Positions 1,689 to 56,544 of a stretch of DNA of 64,000 bases are shown in pieces; position 1 is the stretch's first letter; every line of letters starts with the position of its first letter. The notes beneath the pieces are model-generated. The model saw only the letters and a program-made list of their open reading frames with translations. It had not been told where the DNA came from and made no database searches. The DNA comes from Candidatus Parcubacteria bacterium (lineage in GTDB: Bacteria > Patescibacteriota > Minisyncoccia > Phycocordibacterales > UBA918). Location of the stretch: NCBI GenBank assembly GCA_021731405.1, contig JAKFXN010000003.1, forward strand, positions 44,676-108,675. The letters run 5' to 3'. Both the position numbers and the translations under genes were made by a program.

Positions 1689-3311
1689 ATGAACATAGCG
1701 TACTTTTACGTTGCGACAATAAGTTTCTTTACCGGTGTTTTCATAACAACGTTTTACCCACTGTCGCTGCCTACCATCACATGGCTTATCGGCATTGGGG
1801 TAGTACTTACCCTCATTTTTGCAAAGCAAGCAAAAGCGAGAAATGTCCTCCCGACATTATTTCTTTGTAGTATTGCGATTATATTTTTTGCGCTTGGTGC
1901 GCTTCGAGTTGAGATTTCTGAATGGAGTTTTTCTAAAAACATTTTAGCTGAAAAAGTTGGAGAAAAAGTTTTGCTTGAAGGTGTAGTGGTGAGAGAGCCA
2001 GATGTGCGTGAGCGAACGACGCAGATTACTGTTAAGACAGGAGAAGATAAAGTACTTGTTAGTGTCGACAGGTTCCATGCCGTTGAGTACGGTGATCAGA
2101 TAATTGTATCTGGTACCCTCACAATTCCTGAGACATTTGAAACCGACCTGGGCCGCTCTTTTAACTACGCTACGTATTTAAAAGCAAAAGGCATTTTGTA
2201 TCAGATACCATTTGCTGATGTGCAGATTACTAGGAAAGGGAAAGGCAATTATGTTGTTTCAAAGCTACTTACCTTTAAACAAACATTCCTTACACAGATT
2301 GAGGTTTATTTAGCTGAACCAGCAGCTGGTCTAGGTAAAGGGCTACTTTTGGGGGTCAAAGAAGGTCTAGGAGAGGATTTAGAGTCAGCCTTTCGTAAGA
2401 CTGGGATTATCCATATTGTTGTTCTCTCGGGATACAACATTATGCTCGTGGTTATTTTTGTGATGGCAATTTTAGGTTATTTCTTTTCTAAAAAGATAAG
2501 TGTATTTTTTGGCGTCTTGGGAATCATCGCCTTTGCGCTCATGGTCGGACTATCTTCGACTGTAGTTCGGGCAAGTATCATGGCCTGTCTACTTCTTATG
2601 ACGCAGGTCACCAGTCGCACATATTTGGTAGTCAGGGGACTTGTTCTCGCTGCCTTAATTATGGTTGTACTAAACCCATATTTAATTGCCTATGACATTG
2701 GTTTTCAACTTTCATTTTTAGCTACCTTAGGACTCATTTTCATTACTCCTCACTTTGCTCGTTTATGTGCACGTGTGACTGAAGTAGCTGGAGTACGTTC
2801 TTTCTTGGTGGCTACACTGGGAACACAACTCGCTGTCTTGCCATTACTCCTGTATCAGATTGGAGAACTTTCTATTGTCTCTGTTTTGGTAAATGTGCTC
2901 GTACTTCCAATGGTACCTGTGGCTATGCTCTTAACATTTTGTACGGGTACGCTAGGGTATATCTCAGTCACATTAGCCAGCCTAGCTTCATACCCAACTT
3001 TTCTCTCTTTGTCATACATAACAAAAACAGCTGAGATGTTTGCTGAGCTTCCATTTGCATCGGTGGTAGTGCCACCGTTTCCGTTTTGGGTAGTGGTACT
3101 CGCGTACGCGTTAATGATTTATGTCTTATATAAAAAATATGAACCGATACTCATGGGTAATGTAGGGGAACTGCATGAGCACCTTCTTACTCAAAAGAAA
3201 ATCTCAGATGATATTAATGAAACACTCGCTGGTTGGACTATTGAAGAGGAATTTGATCTGCCACTTCAAAAAGAAACAGTTGTCACAAGGACAACTGTTT
3301 CTAAAGAATAG
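1689..3311 (+). CDS. comEC: ComEC/Rec2 competence protein, N-terminal DUF4131 + competence channel domain (no MBL domain)
   Basis: Polytopic membrane protein; GIIHIVVLSGYNIM matches ComEC competence domain HLLAISGLH region. Confidence 0.75.
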   Translation: MNIAYFYVATISFFTGVFITTFYPLSLPTITWLIGIGVVLTLIFAKQAKARNVLPTLFLCSIAIIFFALGALRVEISEWSFSKNILAEKVGEKVLLEGVVVREPDVRERTTQITVKTGEDKVLVSVDRFHAVEYGDQIIVSGTLTIPETFETDLGRSFNYATYLKAKGILYQIPFADVQITRKGKGNYVVSKLLTFKQTFLTQIEVYLAEPAAGLGKGLLLGVKEGLGEDLESAFRKTGIIHIVVLSGYNIMLVVIFVMAILGYFFSKKISVFFGVLGIIAFALMVGLSSTVVRASIMACLLLMTQVTSRTYLVVRGLVLAALIMVVLNPYLIAYDIGFQLSFLATLGLIFITPHFARLCARVTEVAGVRSFLVATLGTQLAVLPLLLYQIGELSIVSVLVNVLVLPMVPVAMLLTFCTGTLGYISVTLASLASYPTFLSLSYITKTAEMFAELPFASVVVPPFPFWVVVLAYALMIYVLYKKYEPILMGNVGELHEHLLTQKKISDDINETLAGWTIEEEFDLPLQKETVVTRTTVSKE

Positions 3312-21934: not shown

Positions 21935-22312
21935 ATGGCCACAGATACTACAAAAAAAGAGACCAAAGCCAAAGAAGCAAAAGCTCCAAAGGCTGCTTCA
22001 GGCGAAATTAATAAACTTCGTATTCGCGTCCGTGCTTACGAGCACAAGATTCTTGATGCGAGTATCAAGCAAATTATTGACACTGCACTTCGCTTTGACG
22101 CGAAGGTAGTTGGTCCGATCCCACTTCCGACTGAAATCAAAAAGTATACAGTCAATCGTTCGACGTTCGTTTATAAAGATGCGCGAGAACAATTCGAGAT
22201 GCGAATGCATAAGCGAGTAGTTGATATTCTTAACCCAGGACCAAAGGTAGTAGAGGCTCTAACGAACCTCTCGCTCCCGTCTGGAGTAAATATTGATGTA
22301 AAGATGATGTAG
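21935..22312 (+). CDS. rpsJ: 30S ribosomal protein S10 with ~23-aa Lys-rich N-terminal extension
   Basis: KLRIRVRAYEHKILD...GPIPLPT...VNRSTFVYKDAREQFEMRMHKR. Confidence 0.9.
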   Translation: MATDTTKKETKAKEAKAPKAASGEINKLRIRVRAYEHKILDASIKQIIDTALRFDAKVVGPIPLPTEIKKYTVNRSTFVYKDAREQFEMRMHKRVVDILNPGPKVVEALTNLSLPSGVNIDVKMM

Positions 22313-38249: not shown

Positions 38250-38846
38250 ATGGAAGACGATGTGCTATATGTAAATAGATGTAAAGCTGGTGACACAGAA
38301 GCTTTTGGCGTATTGTACGATCGGTACATAGATAAAATCTATCGATTTGTTTTTTATAAAACGTTTGTTAAAGAAGTGGCGGAAGATATCACAAGTGATG
38401 TATTTCATAAGGCACTGCAAAAGATTAATTCTTACGAAGCTGACAGGGGCGTATTTAGCGCTTGGATATATCGTATCGCCCGCAATAATGTGATTGATTA
38501 TTACCGCAGTCAGAAAGGAGACGTACCGCTTGAGGATGTATTTGACGTTGGGTTTGATGAACGTACTCCCGAATCGCTCGACGCCATTGCGGCCCTTGAT
38601 AAAGTGAATGTGTATCTTGAGACTTTGAGTAGTAAGCAGCGGGAGATCATCACCCTTCGGGTTTGGGAAGAGCTGCCTTACCTCGAAATTGCCGAGATTG
38701 TGGGCGGTACGGAAGATAGTGTAAAGATGGCTTTTTCTCGCAGTATCCGTGAATTGCGTGAAAAGTGTGGACCCATTTCACCCCTACTTCTCTTTGTGGC
38801 GGTTGGGTTTTCAGAGCAGGCGTTACTTTTTCATGATTTTACGTAA
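38250..38846 (+). CDS. ECF (extracytoplasmic function) RNA polymerase sigma factor
   Basis: sigma-70 region 2 (YDRYIDKIYRFVFYK...DITSDVF) and region 4 (LSSKQREIITLRVWEELPYLEIAEIVG). Confidence 0.85.
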   Translation: MEDDVLYVNRCKAGDTEAFGVLYDRYIDKIYRFVFYKTFVKEVAEDITSDVFHKALQKINSYEADRGVFSAWIYRIARNNVIDYYRSQKGDVPLEDVFDVGFDERTPESLDAIAALDKVNVYLETLSSKQREIITLRVWEELPYLEIAEIVGGTEDSVKMAFSRSIRELREKCGPISPLLLFVAVGFSEQALLFHDFT

Positions 38847-38856
38847 TACATAGTAT

Positions 38857-39648
38857 ATGAAGGATTCGCTTGAATTAATTATTAAAGACATCTATACCCT
38901 TGATCCGTCGCTCGTAGAGCAAGACGGTGAGGTACGGGCTTTGGTGAGTGCTCTTTCGGAGCAGAAACCAGTAGTCGTGATAGATGCTGCTTTTGTGCAA
39001 TCTTTGCGCGCTGACTTAGTGAAACCTGCTCGGGTGATGCCTGTTGTTGCCCCAACACCGTCAGCTTGGTGGATGGTATATGGAGCACCAGTTGGGGTTC
39101 TGGCACTCTTGCTGATTATGCTTATACCGAAGACGGAGCCTATGCGCAATGAAGTTCCAACCATTGCCCCTTCGCCAGTAAGAGAAGCAGATATGTATCT
39201 TGAGTCTTCGGATGGGGCGCAAGAGACTAAGCGTTCAGCTCCCGCCAGTGGCGCTGCCGAGTCAATGATGATGGAAGCAGATACTATGATGATGTCAGCT
39301 CCGGTGTCTGGAGACACCTTCCAAATCAGTACCCAAGCGCCTGGAGACACGGTCGTAGTAGACTTTGCCTCCCTTGAACAAGCGGGGTACTTAGTTATTC
39401 AAGCTTATACAGAAGAAGGTCCAGGAGAAATCCTTGGTACTAGTCCGCTCTTGGCTGCCGGTATGATAGAGCAGGTTCAAATTGTCTTGAATTTAACCAC
39501 AGAGCCTGACCAAACCTTCTTTGCGGTCCTATATCGAGACGATGGCGATGGGTTGTTCTCACTTGAAGCAGACATGATGGTCTATGACCAAAGTGGTACG
39601 GTACCGTTCTCACAAATGTTCTCAACTACACCGGCTCCACTCCCATAA
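38857..39648 (+). CDS. putative anti-sigma factor (single-pass membrane protein)
   Basis: Immediately downstream of ECF sigma, cytoplasmic N-term + one TM (WWMVYGAPVGVLALLLIMLI) + extracytoplasmic domain. Confidence 0.55.
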   Translation: MKDSLELIIKDIYTLDPSLVEQDGEVRALVSALSEQKPVVVIDAAFVQSLRADLVKPARVMPVVAPTPSAWWMVYGAPVGVLALLLIMLIPKTEPMRNEVPTIAPSPVREADMYLESSDGAQETKRSAPASGAAESMMMEADTMMMSAPVSGDTFQISTQAPGDTVVVDFASLEQAGYLVIQAYTEEGPGEILGTSPLLAAGMIEQVQIVLNLTTEPDQTFFAVLYRDDGDGLFSLEADMMVYDQSGTVPFSQMFSTTPAPLP

Positions 39649-39771: not shown

Positions 39772-40785
39772 ATGGAATTTATCAAAAAGATTGATTGGAG
39801 TAAGCCAGGAATACAGCTCGCGTTTGTGGGTCTGTTTGGCGTATTCGCTTTTATAGTATTGTCGGGTACCAGTATTCAAAACCCAATGCCTTCATTCTCT
39901 AAGGACAGTGAAGAAGCGATGTATTATGGCGATGGCTATGCGGTTTCGTCAGATATGGGCATGGGATATGGACAAGAACTTTCTCTTCGTAATGTAGAAG
40001 GAAGCATCATGCCACCAATGCCAGATTTTGCCCCAGGCAATGACGCTGAAGCGTATGAGGTAAAGCAGTACTCAGCTACTATCGAAACTAGAAACCTAGA
40101 AGAGGATTGTTCTACTGTACGTTCACTCATGGAGCGCGAAGATGTTATCTTTCAAAATAAAAATGAATACGAACAAGGATGTTCATATAGTTTTAAGGTA
40201 GAGAAGGAGAGCGTTGAGGAAGTGCTAGCTATCTTAGAAGCGCTTGATCCAAAAGATCTTAGTGAAAACTCCTACACCATTAAGCGTGAAGTGGCTGATT
40301 ACACGGGAGAGATTGAAATTCTCGAGAAGAAGCTCGCTACGCTAGACCAGACTCTGACCCAATCGCTCGCCAGTTATGACACCCTAAGTGCACAAGCAAC
40401 TGCTCGAGGCGACGTAGCAACGCTCGCTCAGATTACTGAAAGTAAGATAACCCTTATTGAGCGCCTAACTATCACTCGTATTGATACTGTCGGACAACTC
40501 GATAGACTAGCTCGAGCGAAAGCTGAAGCGCTTGACCAGCTCGTGTACACAAACTTCTACGTAAATATTTACGAAAACACCTTCGTAAACGGTGAAGAGA
40601 TTAAGACTTCGTGGATAGAAGCGGTTAAAGAATTGGTGCGAGAGATCAACACCTTCGCACAAGAGGTAAGTCTTGGGTTTGTAGCACTCTTGTTTATGGT
40701 AGTGAAATATTCACTTTACGGTATCGTACTACTCTTTGTAGCTCGCTTTGCCTACTCATTCGCTCGAAAAGTCTGGACTTCATAG
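39772..40785 (+). CDS. DUF4349-like protein (N-terminal TM, coiled coil, C-terminal TM)
   Basis: Architecture and position next to ECF/anti-sigma pair. Confidence 0.45.
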   Translation: MEFIKKIDWSKPGIQLAFVGLFGVFAFIVLSGTSIQNPMPSFSKDSEEAMYYGDGYAVSSDMGMGYGQELSLRNVEGSIMPPMPDFAPGNDAEAYEVKQYSATIETRNLEEDCSTVRSLMEREDVIFQNKNEYEQGCSYSFKVEKESVEEVLAILEALDPKDLSENSYTIKREVADYTGEIEILEKKLATLDQTLTQSLASYDTLSAQATARGDVATLAQITESKITLIERLTITRIDTVGQLDRLARAKAEALDQLVYTNFYVNIYENTFVNGEEIKTSWIEAVKELVREINTFAQEVSLGFVALLFMVVKYSLYGIVLLFVARFAYSFARKVWTS

Positions 40786-40846
40786 TCAAATAGACCCAAT
40801 CGGTAAGATATTGCAGGATGCTCCGTCAACGTAAATAACAAACACT

Positions 40847-41059
40847 ATGTACGAAAAAGCTAAAACATTTACACTTTCAAAACCACTTCTCAAAAAGATA
40901 GTTGGTGGAGTGTTGGTGCTGATTGGCTTTGTGGCTCTTATCACGCCATTGACACCAGGAGCTATACTCTTCCTCTTCGTGGGCTTTGAGTTTCTTGGCC
41001 TCAGGTTTATGTTCCTCGACCGCCTTATTGGACGAAAACCAGCCTCTGCCTTAGAATAA
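40847..41059 (+). CDS. small membrane protein (70 aa, two TM)
   Basis: ORF + terminator 41088-41120. Confidence 0.45.
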   Translation: MYEKAKTFTLSKPLLKKIVGGVLVLIGFVALITPLTPGAILFLFVGFEFLGLRFMFLDRLIGRKPASALE

Positions 41060-41121
41060 TTGCAAAGGAGAACCCTAGGTAAAACGTAAAAGCCGCAAAT
41101 CCTATGGATTTGCGGCTTTTA

Positions 41122-41219
41122 CTATGCAAAATAAGACTCGATTGAGCATAATTATTGACTTTACTCATAAATTATGCTATTATACTAGCAGTACAGTCTC
41201 ATCCCGAGACTAAAGGAGT
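41122..41219 (+). repeat. copy A of 97-nt promoter-operator-RBS module
   Basis: 94/97 identical to 41508-41605; contains TTGACT-17-TATTAT, inverted repeat gcataattat/ataaattatgc around -35, hairpin agtctc-atccc-gagact, AAAGGAG SD. Confidence 0.9.
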
Positions 41220-41224
41220 TCGTC

Positions 41225-41440
41225 ATGTTGCACCCCGAAGCAAAAAACTTGCCCGCTACCAAGGAAGAAACACTCACAATGATCGAAATTGTGAAGTCGA
41301 CACTCGTTTTCGACAAGGAGGCTCTTGCAGATGCCGTCGATGAAGGTGACTACTACAAAATTCTGGAAGAGCAGCGCGAAGTCGCTGATTCCGAAAAGGA
41401 CCTCGCCGCGCTCGAAGCACATCTCTTGACCTTCCAGTGA
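41225..41440 (+). CDS. cassette A cargo: acidic 71-aa helical protein
   Basis: ATG 6 nt after SD of the repeat module; terminator 41447-41490. Confidence 0.55.
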   Translation: MLHPEAKNLPATKEETLTMIEIVKSTLVFDKEALADAVDEGDYYKILEEQREVADSEKDLAALEAHLLTFQ

Positions 41441-41507
41441 AAGATTTACCGCCTTTAAGACAAAACCTGTCTTCGGGCGGTTTTGTTTTGTCTAAAAGCA
41501 GCTCCTG

Positions 41508-41605
41508 CTATGCAAAATAAGACTCGATTGAGCATAATTATTGACTTTACCCATAAATTATGCTATTATATTAGCAGTACAGTCTCATTCCGAGACTAAA
41601 GGAGT
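41508..41605 (+). repeat. copy B of 97-nt promoter-operator-RBS module
   Basis: see copy A. Confidence 0.9.
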
Positions 41606-41609
41606 TCCC

Positions 41610-41900
41610 ATGAAATTTGTCCTGAACCTTGTTGCTGCCACCCTTGCTGCAATTGGCGCCATCACGCTGATTAATCTCGGTGTTGAAGGCTTCTCGAGAG
41701 AGAAAGCTATCGTCAAAACTGAAAAGTTCGAACCGTCCCGATATGTTCACAGAAATGGGCTTGATAAAGCACAGCTTCTCTGTGAAAAATATGGTGGCAT
41801 TCTCTCCATTGGAGGCATGTATATCCAAGATGGCGTGAGGTATGAGCTCATGTGTATGTATGGGAAGGAGATGACGTTTGAAATCTTGCTTTCAAAATGA
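41610..41900 (+). CDS. cassette B cargo: 96-aa secreted/anchored Cys-containing protein
   Basis: ATG 41610 right after module SD (ORF track offers upstream in-frame start 41541 inside the module); signal-like MKFVLNLVAATLAAIGAITL; terminator 41902-41940. Confidence 0.55.
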   Translation: MKFVLNLVAATLAAIGAITLINLGVEGFSREKAIVKTEKFEPSRYVHRNGLDKAQLLCEKYGGILSIGGMYIQDGVRYELMCMYGKEMTFEILLSK

Positions 41901-42153
41901 CCGCCTTCAGACAAGACTGTCTAAGGCGGTTTTGTTTTGTCTAAAAGACCCCAAAAGGTTGACTTTTCCTCACCATTTGGTACTGTAGGCGGGTTCCAAC
42001 CTCACGCGGGATTGAAGTGTCACCCGCACAAAAGTAGCAGAAGCACAGGTTATTAAGGGTTGGGAATCTCTGTTAAGGACGGCCGTTACCTTTCTTTACA
42101 AGAGATTCTCACAGAGGCGCCACAAGCGCTTATTTATTCGTTGTTAGAAAAAC

Positions 42154-42495
42154 ATGTCACGTTCACTCTATAAAGGACCATACATAGACGAAAAGCTACT
42201 GAAGAAGATCGCCGGCAAGAAAGCCGGAGAGAGTGTAGTCATCAAGACCTGGTCACGCGATAGTGTTATCGCTCCAGAAATGGTGGGATTCACATTTGGC
42301 GTACACAACGGTAAGGATCATATTCCAGTTACCGTCGCCGAAGAAATGGTAGGTCACCGATTAGGGGAGTTCTCTCCAACTAAGAAGTTCCACCGACACG
42401 GAGGAAAGATGCAGAAGGAACTAGAGCAGAAGAAGAAGGAAGCAGAAATCTCAGCCGCAAAAGCAGCTAAGACAACTTCAGCAACTAAGAAGTAG
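42154..42495 (+). CDS. rpsS: 30S ribosomal protein S19 with Lys-rich C-terminal extension
   Basis: [19 protein letters not shown]...[17 protein letters not shown]. Confidence 0.95.
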
Positions 42496-42507
42496 GGTAT
42501 ATACATT

Positions 42508-42831
42508 ATGAAAGCAATTCTAAAAAATTACCGCCAATCACCTCGAAAAGTCCGCTTAATTGCTGACGTTGTTCGCGGAAAGAAGGTAGGAGAAGCCCTC
42601 GCGATGTTGAAGTTTGTAGATAAGCGCGCATCAGGTCCATTTGCTAAGGTAGTTGAATCTGCACTTGCAAACGCTATCCACGCTGGAAAGCAACCTGAAC
42701 GTCTTTTCATCAAGAAAGTTTCAGTCGACAAAGGAACCATTATCAAGCGCTTTATGCCACGTGCCCGCGGTTCAGCATCACGTATTAACAAGCGAAATAG
42801 TCACATCTCAGTCGAACTCGGCGAGAAATAA
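42508..42831 (+). CDS. rplV: 50S ribosomal protein L22
   Basis: MKAILKNYRQSPRKVRLIADVVRGKKV. Confidence 0.9.
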   Translation: MKAILKNYRQSPRKVRLIADVVRGKKVGEALAMLKFVDKRASGPFAKVVESALANAIHAGKQPERLFIKKVSVDKGTIIKRFMPRARGSASRINKRNSHISVELGEK

Positions 42832-42836
42832 TACCT

Positions 42837-43553
42837 ATGACACACGTAGCACATCCATATGTACAGCGCATTGGTGTAAACCGCGACTGGAAGAGTCGAT
42901 GGTTCACAACTGATCCAAAGAAGTTCCGCGAGTACATTCGCGCAGACGCAGCAGTTCGAAAGCTTCTTGAAAAGAAACTTAAGGGAATGTCAGTTGATAC
43001 GGTAGAGATTGAACGAAGTCAAAAAGAACTTCGCATTATCGTAAAGACAGCACGACCAGGTCTCGTTATTGGCCGCAGTGGAGAAGGTGCAACCAAGCTC
43101 AAGAAAGAGATTGATATGCTCCTGCGAACACTTAAGCTCACTGACAAGGCAGAAATCAAGCTTGATGTTGAAGAAGTTCGTTCTCCAGAATCTAGTGCCA
43201 ACATCGTTGGTCAGATGATTGCCGAAGGACTTGAGAAGCGTCTTACTTTCCGTCGAGTGATGAAGCAAACTATTGAAAAAGTAATGGCTAACCGAGATGT
43301 AGAAGGAGTACGTATTATTCTTTCAGGTCGTCTTGGAGGAGCTGATATGGCTCGAAAAGAAGAACTAAAGAAAGGACGAATCCCACTACAAACCCTACGC
43401 GCTGATATTGATTTTGCACGAGTAACGGCTCGTCTCCCATACGGCGCAATTGGTATCAAGGTTTGGATCTATCGAGGACAAGTGTTTGCAGACCGAAAAG
43501 CTAACCCAGCTGAGGCCGCACCACGAACACCACGACCTACTCGCAACGCATAA
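42837..43553 (+). CDS. rpsC: 30S ribosomal protein S3
   Basis: HPYVQRIGVNRDWKSRWF, KH domain, 238 aa. Confidence 0.95.
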   Translation: MTHVAHPYVQRIGVNRDWKSRWFTTDPKKFREYIRADAAVRKLLEKKLKGMSVDTVEIERSQKELRIIVKTARPGLVIGRSGEGATKLKKEIDMLLRTLKLTDKAEIKLDVEEVRSPESSANIVGQMIAEGLEKRLTFRRVMKQTIEKVMANRDVEGVRIILSGRLGGADMARKEELKKGRIPLQTLRADIDFARVTARLPYGAIGIKVWIYRGQVFADRKANPAEAAPRTPRPTRNA

Positions 43554-45719: not shown

Positions 45720-45997
45720 GCTCTGCTTATTTTTAGAAAGCAAAGAGTTTTGCTTTCGGAAGAGGAACGAGACGGAGACATGTTTGGCTATGACTAATGC
45801 CAAACAGTCGAGTCCGGGGTGAGGAAGAGTCAAAACTCTTCCGCAAGACTTCTTGAGATATTTGAAGAATGAAAATATCCAAGAAGTGGACAGCTTCTGT
45901 AAGAAGGAAGTTCTTAGTGAGCGCAGCGAACTTAGAAACTTGACCCTACCTTTGCAGAAACCAGCTGAAGCTAAGTAACCTTAGTAAAGCAAAACAA

Positions 45998-46031
45998 CAA
46001 AACCCCGCGCCTCAGGCGCGGGGTTTTGTTG
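45998..46031 (+). terminator. terminator
   Basis: aaaaccccgcgcc-tca-ggcgcggggttttgttg. Confidence 0.85.
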
Positions 46032-46098
46032 TTGACATAGCAAAGATAAGTTGGTTTTATAAGTAAGGAACCTGTCCTTACTAACTTCTGGAGGTGTT

Positions 46099-46428
46099 AT
46101 GCCTAAAATCACTGACGATCACGCAAAGGCAGGCGGGCATTCAGCTGCCGCGTCAAAAGCGAATGCTTTTTCGACTCCACCCAAGCGAGATGAGGCGCTT
46201 ACTGAGCGGATTTTGCTTAGTGGCGGCGGCTACAAGGTGGTGTTTCCTCCCGACTGGCACAAGAAAAATGGCCGCAAAGGGGGAGAAGAAACGCTGTCTT
46301 CAGCTGAAAGTGGTGCGCCTCGGTTTAAATTGGGTGACCACCCACTTGATGTTGATGTGCTTACGCGACTCAATTTTCTTCCTGTTCACCGTCATGGCTT
46401 TGCAAAAGACAAAAAACAGCGCTCTTAG
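46099..46428 (+). CDS. GC-shifted orphan ORF (109 aa, basic, unknown function)
   Basis: GC ~52% vs ~42% neighbours; GGAGG 5 nt before ATG; perfect terminator 46427-46465; alternative-frame ORF 46094-46468 in track is considered spurious. Confidence 0.5.
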   Translation: MPKITDDHAKAGGHSAAASKANAFSTPPKRDEALTERILLSGGGYKVVFPPDWHKKNGRKGGEETLSSAESGAPRFKLGDHPLDVDVLTRLNFLPVHRHGFAKDKKQRS

Positions 46429-46465
46429 ACAAACACTCGCTTCGGCGAGTGTTTCTTTTTGTTTG
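46427..46465 (+). terminator. terminator
   Basis: aaacactcgc-ttcg-gcgagtgtttctttttgtttg. Confidence 0.85.
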
Positions 46466-46645
46466 TAAGTAAAGGTAAAGCAGTTTCTCTTGACTTTAAG
46501 CCATTTTTTGGTACTCTTGCGGGCAAGGCGAGGCACTTAGAAATCTCAAAATATCTTAGTGTCCGCTGCTTGGCCGTAGGCTAGGCGATTATCAGGGGAT
46601 GAGTTGCGAATAACTACGCAATACCATCTCATAAAACACATATTT

Positions 46646-46831
46646 GTGGCACGTAAATCAGTAATACTGCGCTCAGTGCGCGAACCAAAGTATGCTTGCC
46701 AAGTCGTAAGACGCTGCAAGCTGTGTGCTCGAAAGCGAGGATATATGCGAGACTTTGATCTCTGCCGTATCTGTTTCCGCGAACTAGCACATGAAGGACA
46801 TATACCAGGAATAAAGAAATCATCATGGTAG
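46646..46831 (+). CDS. rpsZ: 30S ribosomal protein S14 type Z (zinc-binding, 61 aa; GTG start)
   Basis: MARKSVILRSVREPKYAC...CKLCARKRGYMRDFDLCRICFRELAHEGHIPGIKKSSW matches the S14Z consensus; ORF track TTG at 46604 is less likely. Confidence 0.85.
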   Translation: MARKSVILRSVREPKYACQVVRRCKLCARKRGYMRDFDLCRICFRELAHEGHIPGIKKSSW

Positions 46832-55182: not shown

Positions 55183-56544
55183 ATGAAAACAACCTTAGGC
55201 TTTTACGGCGGAGTCGGATCAGTTACTGGTGCTAACTTTATGCTTGATACCGGGAAGGTGGCTATATTAGTCGACTGCGGTCTTATTCAGGGAGATAAGT
55301 TTGCTGCGACATTAAACTCAGTTCCGTTTGTCTATAACCCAGCTGAAGTTGATGTGCTCCTAGTGACCCATGCCCATGCCGATCATATCGGCCGAATCCC
55401 TAAGCTCGTGAAGGATGGTTTTAAAGGTCCCATCTACAGCACCACCGCTACCAAAGAACTTTCGCAGACCATGCTCCACGATGCACTTAAGGTGATGGAG
55501 TACGAAGCGCAGCGCTATGGTTATGAACCTCTCTATCAAGTAGAAGATATCGCCACCGCGATGGCCAACTGGAAGACAGTTGAATACGAAGAACGGTTTA
55601 GTCCTGGAGATGATATCGAAGCGTGGTACACGGACGCTGGGCATATTCTTGGCTCGGGCATGATTCATCTCACTCGTAACGGAAAGAAGGTAGTCTTTAC
55701 CGGTGATATCGGGAATGTGCCGCAACCACTCTTAAGCGCACCAGTGATACCAAAAGACTATGACTACATGGTGATGGAGAGTGTATATGGGGACCGACTG
55801 CACGAGCAGGTAGCCGAACGCACGGCACTTCTGCGTTCTTATATTGAAGAGACGCAACAGAAGAACGGTACACTTATTATCCCTGCTTTTTCTCTCGAGC
55901 GCACCCAAGCATTACTATTTGAAATTAATAATCTCATTGAAAGAGGGGAGATAAAGCCATTGCCAGTATTTCTAGATTCTCCGCTCGCAATTACTGTTAC
56001 CAATGTGTATCGAAGCTTTACCCGTTACTTACGTCCTGATGTACAAGCGCAGATAGAAGGGGGAGATGATATTTTTGATTTTAGTGGTCTTAAGTTTACG
56101 AGTACTACCTCTGAGTCGCAGGCTATCAAAGCGCAGAAAGGGGCAAAGATTATCATTGCTGGCTCAGGTATGAGTCACGGTGGTCGCATTAGACGACACG
56201 AAAAAGAATACCTTGATGACAAATCAACAATATTACTCTTGGTTGGTTATCAGTCAGTCGGCAGTATTGGCCGGGTTCTCCAGGATGGCGCCAAGACCGT
56301 CATGATTGATGGTGATAAGGTAAAGGTGCGGGCGAAGATTGCCATGATTCGTGGCTTCTCAGGACATGCTGATAGAGACCAACTTATCAATTTGGTAGCG
56401 GGCGGTGCAGACAAAGCCAAAGGCATCTTTGTGGTAATGGGGGAGGAACGTTCTTCGCTCTTCTTGACCCAGCGCCTCCGAGACTATCTGAACCTCAATG
56501 CCATTGCTCCCGAACCAAACCAAGAAGTGGAAATTGATTTTTAG
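55183..56544 (+). CDS. beta-CASP/MBL-fold RNA-metabolising metallo-hydrolase (RNase J / CPSF-like)
   Basis: LVTHAHADHIG (HxHxDH), beta-CASP layout, C-terminal RNA-specificity region. Confidence 0.75.
   Translation: MKTTLGFYGGVGSVTGANFMLDTGKVAILVDCGLIQGDKFAATLNSVPFVYNPAEVDVLLVTHAHADHIGRIPKLVKDGFKGPIYSTTATKELSQTMLHDALKVMEYEAQRYGYEPLYQVEDIATAMANWKTVEYEERFSPGDDIEAWYTDAGHILGSGMIHLTRNGKKVVFTGDIGNVPQPLLSAPVIPKDYDYMVMESVYGDRLHEQVAERTALLRSYIEETQQKNGTLIIPAFSLERTQALLFEINNLIERGEIKPLPVFLDSPLAITVTNVYRSFTRYLRPDVQAQIEGGDDIFDFSGLKFTSTTSESQAIKAQKGAKIIIAGSGMSHGGRIRRHEKEYLDDKSTILLLVGYQSVGSIGRVLQDGAKTVMIDGDKVKVRAKIAMIRGFSGHADRDQLINLVAGGADKAKGIFVVMGEERSSLFLTQRLRDYLNLNAIAPEPNQEVEIDF

Follow-up and report, generated by a model that had tools for sequence, protein, structure and literature searches.

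A lineage-specific array of small-gene cassettes with variable cargo beside rpsS in one Patescibacteria lineage

Two adjacent small genes of a Patescibacteria genome carry nearly the same 5' module and the same terminator tail around unrelated coding sequences, which raises the question of whether they are a diverged duplication or neighbours in an array of cassettes. The window, that is the whole stretch of 64,000 nucleotides, was analysed together with the corresponding loci of related genomes, and the features of the locus are collected in Table 1. The two units are members of a real, lineage-specific and variable array of small genes in one Patescibacteria (CPR) lineage; the comparison established how the cassettes are built, that this anatomy is conserved and shows covariation, and that their number, order and content vary among the relatives. 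The main explanation, to which a probability of about 0.6 was assigned, is that the two units are neighbours in an array of autonomous, insulated expression cassettes for small genes, specific to this lineage and reshuffled through the homology of the conserved ends.

Table 1. Coordinates of the features of the two cassettes and of the slot that holds them
Feature	Position	Strand	Evidence
Left slot anchor: terminator hairpin of the upstream PGPGW-like 70-aa gene (gene 40847-41059)	41086..41122	+	17-bp perfect inverted repeat
Cassette 1 upstream element CTATGCAAAATAAGACT, ~17 nt 5' of the -35	41122..41138	+	consensus CTATGCAAAATAAGGCT
Cassette 1 inverted repeat AGCATAATTATTGA / TCATAAATTATGCT across the -35, putative operator	41145..41178	.	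single-strand fold z = -4.2
Cassette 1 predicted promoter: TTGACT 41155-41160, 17-nt spacer, TG 41175-41176, TATTAT 41178-41183	41155..41183	+	10/12 consensus matches
Cassette 1 leader hairpin AGTCTC-ATCCC-GAGACT (41195-41211), directly followed by SD AAAGGAG (41212-41218)	41195..41218	+	fold
Cargo 1: 71-aa acidic (pI 4.4) helical protein, orphan	41225..41440	+	ORF, codon usage, predicted fold
Terminator 1: nested hairpin ACCGCC..AGACA-loop-TGTCT..GGCGGT (41448-41481), U-tract, shared tail	41448..41498	+	-20 kcal/mol, z = -3.2
Cassette 2 upstream element	41508..41524	+	repeat and cassette alignment
Cassette 2 inverted repeat across the -35	41531..41564	.	repeat search and cassette comparison
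Cassette 2 predicted promoter: TTGACT-17-TATTAT, extended -10 TG	41541..41569	+	10/12 consensus matches
Cassette 2 leader hairpin (41581-41597) and SD AAAGGAG (41598-41604)	41581..41604	+	fold, covariation
Cargo 2: 96-aa membrane-anchored protein, lineage-specific A/B family	41610..41900	+	ORF, TM prediction
Terminator 2: hairpin (41899-31, overlaps with stop codon), then U-tract and shared tail	41899..41947	+	-22 kcal/mol, z = -5.4
Right slot anchor: rpsS promoter TTGACTTTTCC..TGGTACTGT (41959-41986) and structured rpsS leader	41959..42153	+	

Both units occupy a fixed slot, which extends from the terminator of the PGPGW-like gene on the left to the rpsS promoter on the right and is placed within a split ribosomal-protein cluster. 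The left-anchor terminator is kept at the same place in six of the related loci (L001, L005, L006, L010, L050 and L056). On the right, the rpsS promoter and leader region showed 98.8% identity between the window and L001, and the leader contains a conserved hairpin with compensatory pairs as well as a terminator-like hairpin. Literature searches returned no description of the locus or of the assembly.

The shared 5' module was recovered as a direct repeat of 110 nt with 94% identity (41112-41221 against 41498-41607), and blastn gave 97% identity over 100 nt. In shuffled sequence 0 chance matches are expected for the module and tail patterns. This near-identical module and the near-consensus promoter within it, both put forward in the preliminary description, were thus borne out, and a TG at -15/-14 was present in both promoters. 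The only TTGACT promoters with an extended -10 in the 64-kb window are those of the two cassettes and of rpsS. Copies of the module in the window were limited to these two, and across 508 kb of related sequence inspected the full modules were confined to the rpsS slot, so that a dispersed module is not supported within the sequence covered; further copies may lie elsewhere in these genomes. No match to a strict 34-nt module pattern turned up in a scan of a genome collection, outside which the source genome and that of L001 apparently lie. The looser promoter-only pattern gave 27 matches in the same kind of scan, all of them unrelated promoters of Patescibacteria, Clostridia or Eubacteriales that have no leader hairpin, which marks the core promoter motif as generic.

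The leader was found to fold as had been predicted, with AGTCTC-N5-GAGACT paired in both cassettes and the SD AAAGGAG left free. Over 14 cassettes, 98.6% of the cells were paired, compensatory or double changes were seen in two of the five pairs and G-U pairs were tolerated. The covariation score was reached in 0 of 500 shuffles, and the slid controls dropped to 22-49% paired. The evidence for a structured RNA element upheld by compensatory substitutions is moderate, given a short stem of 5 bp and the relatedness of the sequences. The Rfam search gave nothing at the gathering threshold and nothing beyond noise at E values up to 10. Stem-loops at the 5' end stabilise certain highly expressed mRNAs, such as E. 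coli ompA and the B. subtilis aprE and ermC leaders. The cassette hairpin resembles these in being short, stable, covarying, near the predicted 5' end and directly 5' of a strong SD, and it may likewise act as a stabiliser. Only a few nucleotides would separate it from the transcript's 5' end, where it would protect the mRNA and keep the SD exposed; we infer promoter strength, transcription start and this stabilising role from consensus and position. A beta-CASP/RNase J-like gene is also present in the window (55183-56544), and its link to the leader hairpin is speculative.

At their 3' ends both units carry a rho-independent terminator, that is a stable GC-rich hairpin and a U-tract after the stop codon, which is kept in 16 cassettes. 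Terminator 1 matched a terminator HMM and was aligned with the 15 other cassette terminators, and terminator 2 is identical to its counterpart in L001 at 47/47 nt. The common tail described earlier was confirmed, as 23 nt (GGCGGTTTTGTTTTGTCTAAAAG) are identical at 41476-41498 and 41925-41947. The two terminators belong to different subtypes, and a compensated change of CC/GG to TT/AA was observed between the terminator types.

The loci of the relatives were found through the proteins neighbouring the cassettes. At the same slot the relatives hold 0-3 cassettes built on the same scaffold, in the order upstream element, TTGAC/extended -10 promoter, 5' hairpin, SD, small ORF and strong terminator, and their cargos comprise at least seven types in differing order. 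The scaffold is carried by 8 distinct relatives, and 16 non-redundant cassettes were collected, window included: two in the window, one each in L001 and L007, two each in L005, L010 and L050, and three each in L006 and L056. L048 holds at least one divergent unit, and more distant relatives showed no cassettes in the slot. The cargo order is A-B in L005, C-B-A in L056 and C-A-D in L006, the letters denoting cargo families. All cassettes of the relatives point the same way, and none lacks a promoter of its own. Among the 16 aligned cassettes the upstream element is kept in most module types and is weak or absent in L007_c1 and L010_c2.

The cargos of the array are nearly all small membrane-anchored proteins; those of family C have 43-46 aa. 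Cargo 2 has an N-terminal TM helix and two Cys, and its family, A/B, is characterised by two invariant Cys and a small ectodomain of alpha + 3-strand beta type. Homology searching with cargo 2 returned a self match only, its homologues being found at the loci of the relatives. Structure prediction, which had been proposed for both cargos, gave for cargo 2 a small alpha+beta domain of generic type that matched no toxin, and for cargo 1 three helices (AF2, pLDDT 81). Foldseek gave no match with E below 0.7 for cargo 1, and a search of 5.8 billion proteins gave its self match alone. A phmmer match of cargo 1 to a repeat protein, the only one besides self among 1.84 billion representatives, was rejected as spurious. 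The searches of Pfam, PADLOC, PHROGs and NCBIfam returned no matches for cargo 1 and nothing significant for the seven cargo types. Cargo 1 is a real, host-adapted gene; its codon-usage score in frame was 0.344, compared to 0.279 +/- 0.11 for host genes, and the other five frames scored negative.

The two units lie side by side in one orientation and on the same scaffold, families A, B and F elsewhere in the array are genuine paralogues with two invariant Cys, and full modules occur at this locus only; these observations would suit a plain tandem duplication of a small gene with its promoter and terminator, after which the coding part diverged, leaving the cargos as diverged paralogues. However, no similarity was detected between cargo 1 and cargo 2 at the DNA level or in any reading frame, as the preliminary description had held, and cargo 1 shares nothing in any frame with any of the other cargos. 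Its DNA scored no higher against the other cargos than shuffles did, and the comparison of its six frames with the family profile was negative. The latter result also led to the rejection of cargo 1 as a frameshift or overprint of the A/B family. The modules remain 94-97% identical while the cargos are unrelated, and point divergence would not erase a coding sequence and yet spare 100 nt of flanking non-coding DNA. The different subtypes of terminators 1 and 2 also stand against duplication, which is considered very unlikely.

The claim of a cassette array in place of ordinary duplication held in part. It is supported by the lack of relationship of cargo 1 to all other cargos and by the variable content of the relatives, but the modules mostly co-diverge with their cargo. 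In the module identity matrix the modules track the cargo family, and identity between modules with different cargos in one genome amounts to 50-66%, except for the window pair, which reaches 91% in that matrix. Cassette 1 of the window is the only true case of the same module with swapped cargo, and it shares with cassette 2 the states aagAct and gtaCag, which are missing in L001 and in most other modules. One mosaic was found, L005_c1, whose upstream half is of type I and whose core is of type II. The co-divergence of module and cargo in most cassettes is explained equally well by old paralogy with purifying selection on regulatory DNA and without frequent exchange. For cargo B, the coding sequences of the window and L001 have about 51% DNA identity, compared to 99% for the terminator and rpsS leader and 80-99% for the flanking genes. 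The window protein is 52% identical to that of L005 and 41% to that of L001, while its rpsS leader is 91% identical to L005 against 98.8% to L001. This discordance between cargo and flanks reads as a signature of recombination.

Conserved ends around variable cargo, the variation of cassette number and order among relatives and the imperfect palindrome within the 5' module could be expected from a site-specific cassette system, integron-like or similar to the mycoplasma vsp/vpma shufflons, whose conserved ends serve as the sites of a dedicated recombinase. The array does resemble integron arrays in its linear, small, mostly single-ORF units with hairpin-forming conserved boundaries, unrelated cargo and strain-variable content. 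The integron-like reading of the preliminary description was nevertheless not supported. The Pfam search of essentially all ORFs of at least 100 aa in the 64-kb window revealed no integrase, recombinase or transposase domain, and none was found among the called genes of the 20-kb loci of L001 and L005. IntI and attI are missing from the array, inspection by eye revealed no R''/L''/L'/R' organisation of the attC type, and the aligned cassette terminators, read in the same way, contain no GTTRRRY core. At their 3' ends the cassettes have GC-rich hairpins with a U-tract behind them, which are intrinsic terminators rather than attC. Each unit has its own promoter in place of a common Pc, the divergence of the scaffolds is gradual and follows the cargo family, unlike uniform sites, and the array is fixed beside rpsS. 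The scaffold motifs had no matches in viral contigs; this result and the absence of mobile-element genes in the window also led to the rejection of a phage or mobile origin.

With the vsp locus of M. bovis and the vpma locus of M. agalactiae the array shares a reduced genome, a multigene organisation and surface or membrane products (PMC2268961). The trait of a conserved 5' UTR beside unrelated coding regions was also found, the similarity of the cargos being at noise level. The vpma genes depend on a single promoter, and Xer1, a tyrosine recombinase located next to them, inverts DNA at sites in the 5' UTRs and thereby switches the gene that is expressed (PMC2268961). In contrast, each cassette described here has its promoter and terminator, no recombinase is near it in the window, and no lipobox or signal peptide is common to the families. 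The cassettes are all co-oriented, so that no inversions are present among them. A site-specific system is accordingly regarded as scarcely credible.

The small, acidic, helical and cytoplasmic nature of cargo 1, the export of the Cys-containing cargo 2 and the adjacency of the two genes under near-identical promoters, which would give co-regulation, would suit a functional pair in which cargo 2 is a secreted or membrane effector and cargo 1 its immunity or antitoxin protein. This pairing is not conserved, as relatives have homologues of cargo 2 without cargo 1, and the protein collection from which cargo 1 was absent includes other proteins of the L001 contig. A terminator of -20 kcal/mol lies between the two genes, no antisense promoter was found, and neither the family searches nor the generic fold of cargo 2 gave a toxin, immunity or defence match. 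The effector/immunity-like character proposed earlier was hence not upheld, and such a pair is highly improbable. Polymorphic toxin/immunity arrays have in common with this locus tandem, variable small ORFs whose identity falls sharply between strains as compared to the conserved flanks; they differ in that no toxin domain, upstream large delivery protein or immunity match is seen here, and in that the cassettes are predicted to be transcribed independently.

Type I toxin loci such as ldr, ibs/sib and zor/orz consist of tandem genes for small hydrophobic peptides. The present locus resembles them in its tandem small membrane peptides, conserved promoters, structured 5' UTRs, own terminators and intergenic position, and the family C cargos of the relatives are similar to type I toxin peptides. 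In the window, however, one cargo is an ectodomain protein of 96 aa and the other is acidic and soluble; they are not copies of one toxin, nor are they hydrophobic peptides of less than 60 aa. No promoter-like site was detected on the minus strand in 40000-43000, and no Rfam antitoxin match rose above noise.

In the main explanation, that of insulated cassettes reshuffled through their ends, each cassette would be a complete transcription unit whose ORF usually encodes a membrane-anchored or secreted protein. The strong intrinsic terminator would keep transcription from running on into the following unit and the ribosomal operon, and expression would be high and largely constitutive. The promoter-leader repeats of ~110 nt and the terminator repeats of ~45 nt may act as homology arms; cargos would be gained, lost, exchanged or put in a new order there through unequal crossing-over, gene conversion and allele replacement. 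DNA uptake is plausible, since a gene for the competence protein ComEC lies at 1689-3311 of the window. Cassette 1 is probably recent: its B-type module would derive from cassette 2, by copying or conversion since the divergence from the closest relative, and would now drive a genome-specific orphan ORF. A bolder reading regards the promoter-leader and terminator blocks as portable homology arms forming a recombinase-free analogue of an integron, driven by RecA and transformation, by which a CPR lineage swaps, stacks and creates highly expressed genes for small envelope proteins beside the ribosomal operon; cargo 1 would have been born or captured on a fresh module copy, and the palindrome and upstream element would form an array-wide control site. 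This is rather unlikely as it stands.

Most Patescibacteria have yet to be cultured; their genomes are tiny, and an attached life on host cells is generally assumed for them. To our knowledge almost none of their small, fast-changing envelope proteins have been characterised, and proteins that are small, abundant and fast-changing in the envelope are prime candidates for interaction with hosts or phages. The locus offers a compact, well-delimited set of such genes, namely a family with a two-Cys alpha+beta ectodomain, several membrane peptides and one orphan, and the expression signals of these small genes are unusually clear. It also gives a natural example of a copied expression module driving an unrelated or new ORF, which bears on the origin of orphan genes. 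The scaffold of promoter, 5' hairpin, SD and terminator could serve as an expression cassette for CPR genetics. If the exchange by homology is true, the array would represent a recombinase-free route to cassette diversity.

The inverted repeat around the -35, noticed earlier, was found to have arms of 14 nt with 86% complementarity (41145-41158 and 41165-41178 in cassette 1) and perfect outer arms of 9 nt (AGCATAATT/AATTATGCT). It is strong in 6/16 cassettes and absent or weak in the other 10/16, including all C-family and type II modules. The palindrome may be a regulator site, and an addition compatible with the main explanation is that it is an operator by which the subset of cassettes forms a small regulon of one dimeric repressor; this is put forward tentatively, as a possibility. 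In its favour, the z-score of the arms in Table 1 was obtained against shuffles, the palindrome recurs with four cargo types (B, D, F and the orphan), and at one position a compensatory change was seen, A:A in the window clade against T:T in L006c3, L050c2 and L056c2. Both the -35 and the extended -10 overlap with it, and this is a classic position for repression. The occurrence in six cassettes of four cargo types hints at regulation, against constitutive expression. On the other hand, the dyad is missing or weak in the majority of the cassettes, and its right arm, ATAAAT(T)ATGCT, is the spacer and extended -10 motif of 27 unrelated Patescibacteria promoters, so that promoter constraints explain half of the symmetry. 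The positions are all A/T-rich, where symmetry easily arises. No HTH regulator was found near the array and no candidate regulator among the Pfam-scanned ORFs of the window; an ECF sigma/anti-sigma pair is present, and its promoters look different. Beside the 34-bp palindrome, CTATGCAAAATAAGRCT is a second candidate target for protein binding.

The two adjacent cassettes (c1 and c2) were found to share a 5' promoter-leader module and an identical 3' tail, and zero chance matches to these patterns were expected from shuffled sequences. In both modules the promoter was TTGACT-17-TATTAT preceded by TG, the 14-nt arms of an inverted repeat flanked the -35, and the end of a 6-bp hairpin (AGUCUC/GAGACU) abutted the Shine-Dalgarno (SD) sequence AAAGGAG. 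The nested-hairpin terminators were strong (-20 and -22 kcal/mol; z = -3.2 and -5.4). The ORFs enclosed by these conserved ends encode 71 aa (c1, cargo 1) and 96 aa (c2, cargo 2), and similarity between them was absent as DNA and in every frame compared. The preliminary description of paired cassettes was accurate. A count of module copies in the 64-kb window gave two only.

The genomic setting was analysed from gene order and protein identity. S12 and ComEC were 81% and 48% identical to those of the MAG "Patescibacteria group bacterium H41-bin044_1", with the same gene order. The L15 gene directly follows S5, the L30 gene being absent between them, and S5-L15 without L30 is a CPR trait; the window comes from a Patescibacteria (CPR) genome. 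After L3-L4-L23-L2 the ribosomal-protein cluster is broken for about 14 kb by unrelated genes of cell-envelope, redox and ECF-sigma type. Among these are SDR, IspD, glycerophosphotransferase, UbiA, rhodanese, thioredoxin, the ECF sigma factor with its DUF7282 partner, and genes for a DUF4349-like protein and the PGPGW-like protein of 70 aa; both cassettes come next. On their 3' side a third promoter of the TTGACT/extended -10 kind is followed by a structured leader, then by rpsS-rplV-rpsC and onward; promoters of such quality in the window are these three only (c1, c2 and rpsS). S10 and L3 are also apart, with genes for a TPR protein and for a 445-aa protein lacking a family match between them. 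The L2-S19 insert varies in size and content in relatives (L005, L015), and the block from the ECF sigma factor to the PGPGW-like gene is syntenic with the cassette slot in many of them.

Features of the window and of three related loci (window coordinates unless a locus is named)
Feature	Position	Detail
Fragmented S10 operon	21935-42154	
S10	21935-22312	
L3	25342	
L2	ends 27906	
ECF sigma factor	38250-38846	directly upstream of cassette slot
DUF7282 membrane protein	38857-39648	probably the anti-sigma partner
DUF4349-like coiled-coil membrane protein	39772-40785	
PGPGW-like peptide	40847-41059	
Direct repeat (5' module)	41112-41221 and 41498-41607	110 nt, 94% identity; blastn 97% over 100 nt
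Upstream element CTATGCAAAATAAGRCT	41122-41138 and 41508-41524	~17 nt 5' of -35
Identical 23-nt tail GGCGGTTTTGTTTTGTCTAAAAG	41476-41498 and 41925-41947	
rpsS sub-operon	41959-42153	own promoter TTGACTTTTCC..TGGTACTGT, ~165-nt leader
Long leader hairpin	~42061-42111	
Terminator-like hairpin GGCGCCACAAGCGCT plus TATTTATT	42115-42140	just 5' of rpsS start codon
S19 (rpsS)	42154	
spc insertion, L5-S14 interval	45720-46830	
spc insertion terminator	45999-46030	
spc insertion autonomous ORF	46099-46428	109 aa, family unknown
Terminator of that ORF	46432-46462	
spc insertion promoter TTGACTTTAAGCCATTTTTTGGTACTCT	46491-46518	same design as rpsS promoter
Family C peptide	L006 2714-2854	
Frameshifted family A cassette	L010 245-538	
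Additional cassette-type terminator	L056 9568-9605	~3.3 kb upstream of array

The same slot, between the terminator of the PGPGW-like gene and the rpsS promoter, was located in related genomes (L-numbered loci) through the neighbouring PGPGW-like protein and S19 and by one metagenome scan for a 35-mer of the rpsS leader, and cassettes were counted from the promoters, SD-ORFs and terminators mapped 5' of the rpsS promoter. Their number varied between related genomes. One cassette was present in the closest relative (L001/L002/L004; rpsS leader 98.8% identical) and in L007/L008/L011, two in the window, L005, L010/L012 and L050, three in L006 and L056, at least one divergent unit in L048, and none in more distant relatives. 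Alignment revealed a single scaffold common to all 16 non-redundant cassettes, in the order upstream element CTATGCAAAATAAGGCT, promoter of type I (TTGACTTTAC..ATAAATTATGCTATTAT) or type II (TTGATTTTTACGGAAAGTAGCCTACTAT), leader hairpin, SD, small ORF and terminator ACCGCCCC-AGAC-loop-GTCT-TCGGGCGG-TTTTGTTTTGTC. Lettered by family, the cargos run A-B in L005, C-B-A in L056 and C-A-D in L006. The slot thus holds differing numbers, orders and contents, in accordance with the earlier proposal of a cassette array with variable cargo.

The element CTATGCAAAATAAGRCT is kept in most cassette types of L001, L005, L006, L010, L050 and L056, palindrome-free ones included, and is weak or absent in L007_c1 and L010_c2; it could be an activator or UP-like site, or the mere edge of the duplicated unit. 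The additional terminator of L056 indicates that the terminator design is not exclusive to cassettes.

The history of the array was studied through module identities. Modules of one cargo family were 68-83% (C), 63-82% (A) and 77-88% (B) identical, whereas those of different cargos inside one genome were just 50-66% identical; modules normally track the cargo family, so most cassettes resemble paralogous units of old date. The window departs from this, as its c1 and c2 modules are 91% identical in gapped alignment (94-97% ungapped) with unrelated cargos. The c1 module is 90% identical to that of the L001 B cassette. Both window modules share the states aagAct and gtaCag, missing in L001 and most other modules, and the copy or conversion is accordingly placed later than the split from L001, whose sole cassette is B. 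Terminator 1 differs in subtype from terminator 2 and has a hybrid look. A second mosaic, L005_c1, joins a type I upstream half inside the -35 to a type II core. Against L001, the flanks are 80-99% and the terminator and rpsS leader 99% identical, while the cargo-B coding sequence falls with sharp edges to about 51% DNA identity (41% protein); the window's allele is nearer to the L005 allele (52%) than to the L001 one, though L005 is more distant by leader identities. The module copy, mosaic, sharp-edged drop, discordant allele and order changes are marks of the kind that unequal crossing-over, gene conversion and allele replacement leave, and from these sequence patterns we infer that such events had their breakpoints inside the conserved scaffolds. 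A ComEC gene is present, which makes it plausible that foreign alleles are taken up. On the favoured explanation the locus would be a lineage-specific array, adjoining rpsS, of insulated, strongly expressed genes for small, mostly envelope, proteins; homologous recombination at the conserved regulatory ends would remodel this array, and c1 would owe its expression module to a recent copying event, the module now driving an orphan gene.

An integron-like array had also been suggested. Integrase, recombinase and transposase genes were found neither among the window's ORFs of 100 aa or more nor in the gene calls for the loci of the relatives. The hairpins at the 3' ends are terminators, with no attC site seen in them by eye, and each cassette is served by a promoter of its own, so the array is not an integron. 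In the mycoplasma vpma/vsp loci, too, the 5' UTR is conserved and the coding regions are unrelated, but those loci use a single promoter, inversions and a Xer-type recombinase (PMC2268961), which are absent here. The locus is of a known kind, that of multigene loci whose expression regions are conserved and whose coding parts vary. The effector/immunity reading was not borne out, as no cargo matched defence, toxin or immunity families and homologues of cargo 2 occur in relatives without cargo 1. For a type I toxin-antitoxin system, neither an antisense promoter nor an Rfam match was found. The scaffold motifs were absent from the viral contigs searched.

The palindrome straddling the -35 had been taken to imply one common repressor. 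It is strong in six of the 16 cassettes (window c1 and c2, L001, L006_c3, L050_c2 and L056_c2), and no C-family or type II module has it. The six span four cargo types and one position is altered on both arms, which argues for some selection on symmetry. The right arm coincides with the spacer and extended -10 motif ATAAA(N)TATGCTATTAT, matched as a promoter-only pattern in 27 unrelated promoters, mostly of Patescibacteria, and a regulator gene was not identified. A shared repressor is a possibility, less likely than not, and is not implied by the palindrome. The pattern ATTGACTTT-N4-5-ATAAA(N)TATGCTAYTRT recurs before unrelated genes at 27 genome loci (L016-L042) of Saccharibacteria, Nomurabacteria, Paceibacteria, Kaiserbacteria, Yanofskybacteria and other MAGs, which suggests that a strong-promoter consensus is shared across the phylum, its A/T-rich spacer conserved and its extended -10 reading TGC.

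The leader stem was paired in 98.6% of cells across 14 cassettes, with compensatory double changes in two of its five pairs. Its covariation score was reached by no shuffle, and slid controls were only 22-49% paired. G-U pairs were tolerated, which points to RNA-level structure on the + strand. The terminator types are separated by a compensated CC..GG to TT..AA change. In the predicted fold some 4-6 nt separate the leader hairpin from the predicted start, and the SD stays free. Stabilising 5' hairpins of the ompA/aprE kind are known, and by analogy the leader hairpin may act as one.

Neither cargo had homologues beyond itself among 5.8 billion proteins, and cargo 1 had none among 1.84 billion representatives except a single spurious repeat-protein match. 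Cargo 2 belongs to B, which is homologous to A and F; in all three an N-terminal TM helix is joined by a variable linker to a small domain in which two Cys are invariant, and the whole family has just eight members among 5.8 billion proteins. AF2 on their alignment gave a helix and three-stranded sheet (pLDDT above 90), with Cys58 at the helix end and Cys82 at the end of strand 2. The remaining cargos in relatives are the family C membrane peptides (43-46 aa) and three singletons, the membrane proteins D, E and F (the last as a short relative). Cargo 1 is the sole soluble-looking cargo (pI 4.4; three predicted helices, pLDDT 81), with neither a fold nor a family match found. In frame, codons are used as is typical for host genes, the other five frames score negative, and the ORF exactly spans the SD-to-terminator space; on this basis it was accepted as a real gene. 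Family C comprises single-TM peptides (MRISYP...VAEVQ) that resemble type I toxin-like or small regulatory membrane peptides; they are always first in the array (also in L050 and L056), and their modules miss the left arm of the palindrome. The L010 family A cassette is frameshifted against its intact homologue P0031, with which it agrees in the N-terminal half but not in the C-terminal one, being either a pseudogene or an assembly error.

The outer stem of the long rpsS leader hairpin shows compensatory changes in relatives, and the invariant core of the leader partly reflects the 35-mer used to find them. From its sequence, the leader looks like an undescribed ribosomal-protein attenuator or leader; no Rfam match was obtained. 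A second, analogous insertion was observed inside the spc operon, where a leader containing ..TTAGTGTC.. stands ahead of S14/S8. This region is the other hot spot of divergence against L001 (28-42% identity).
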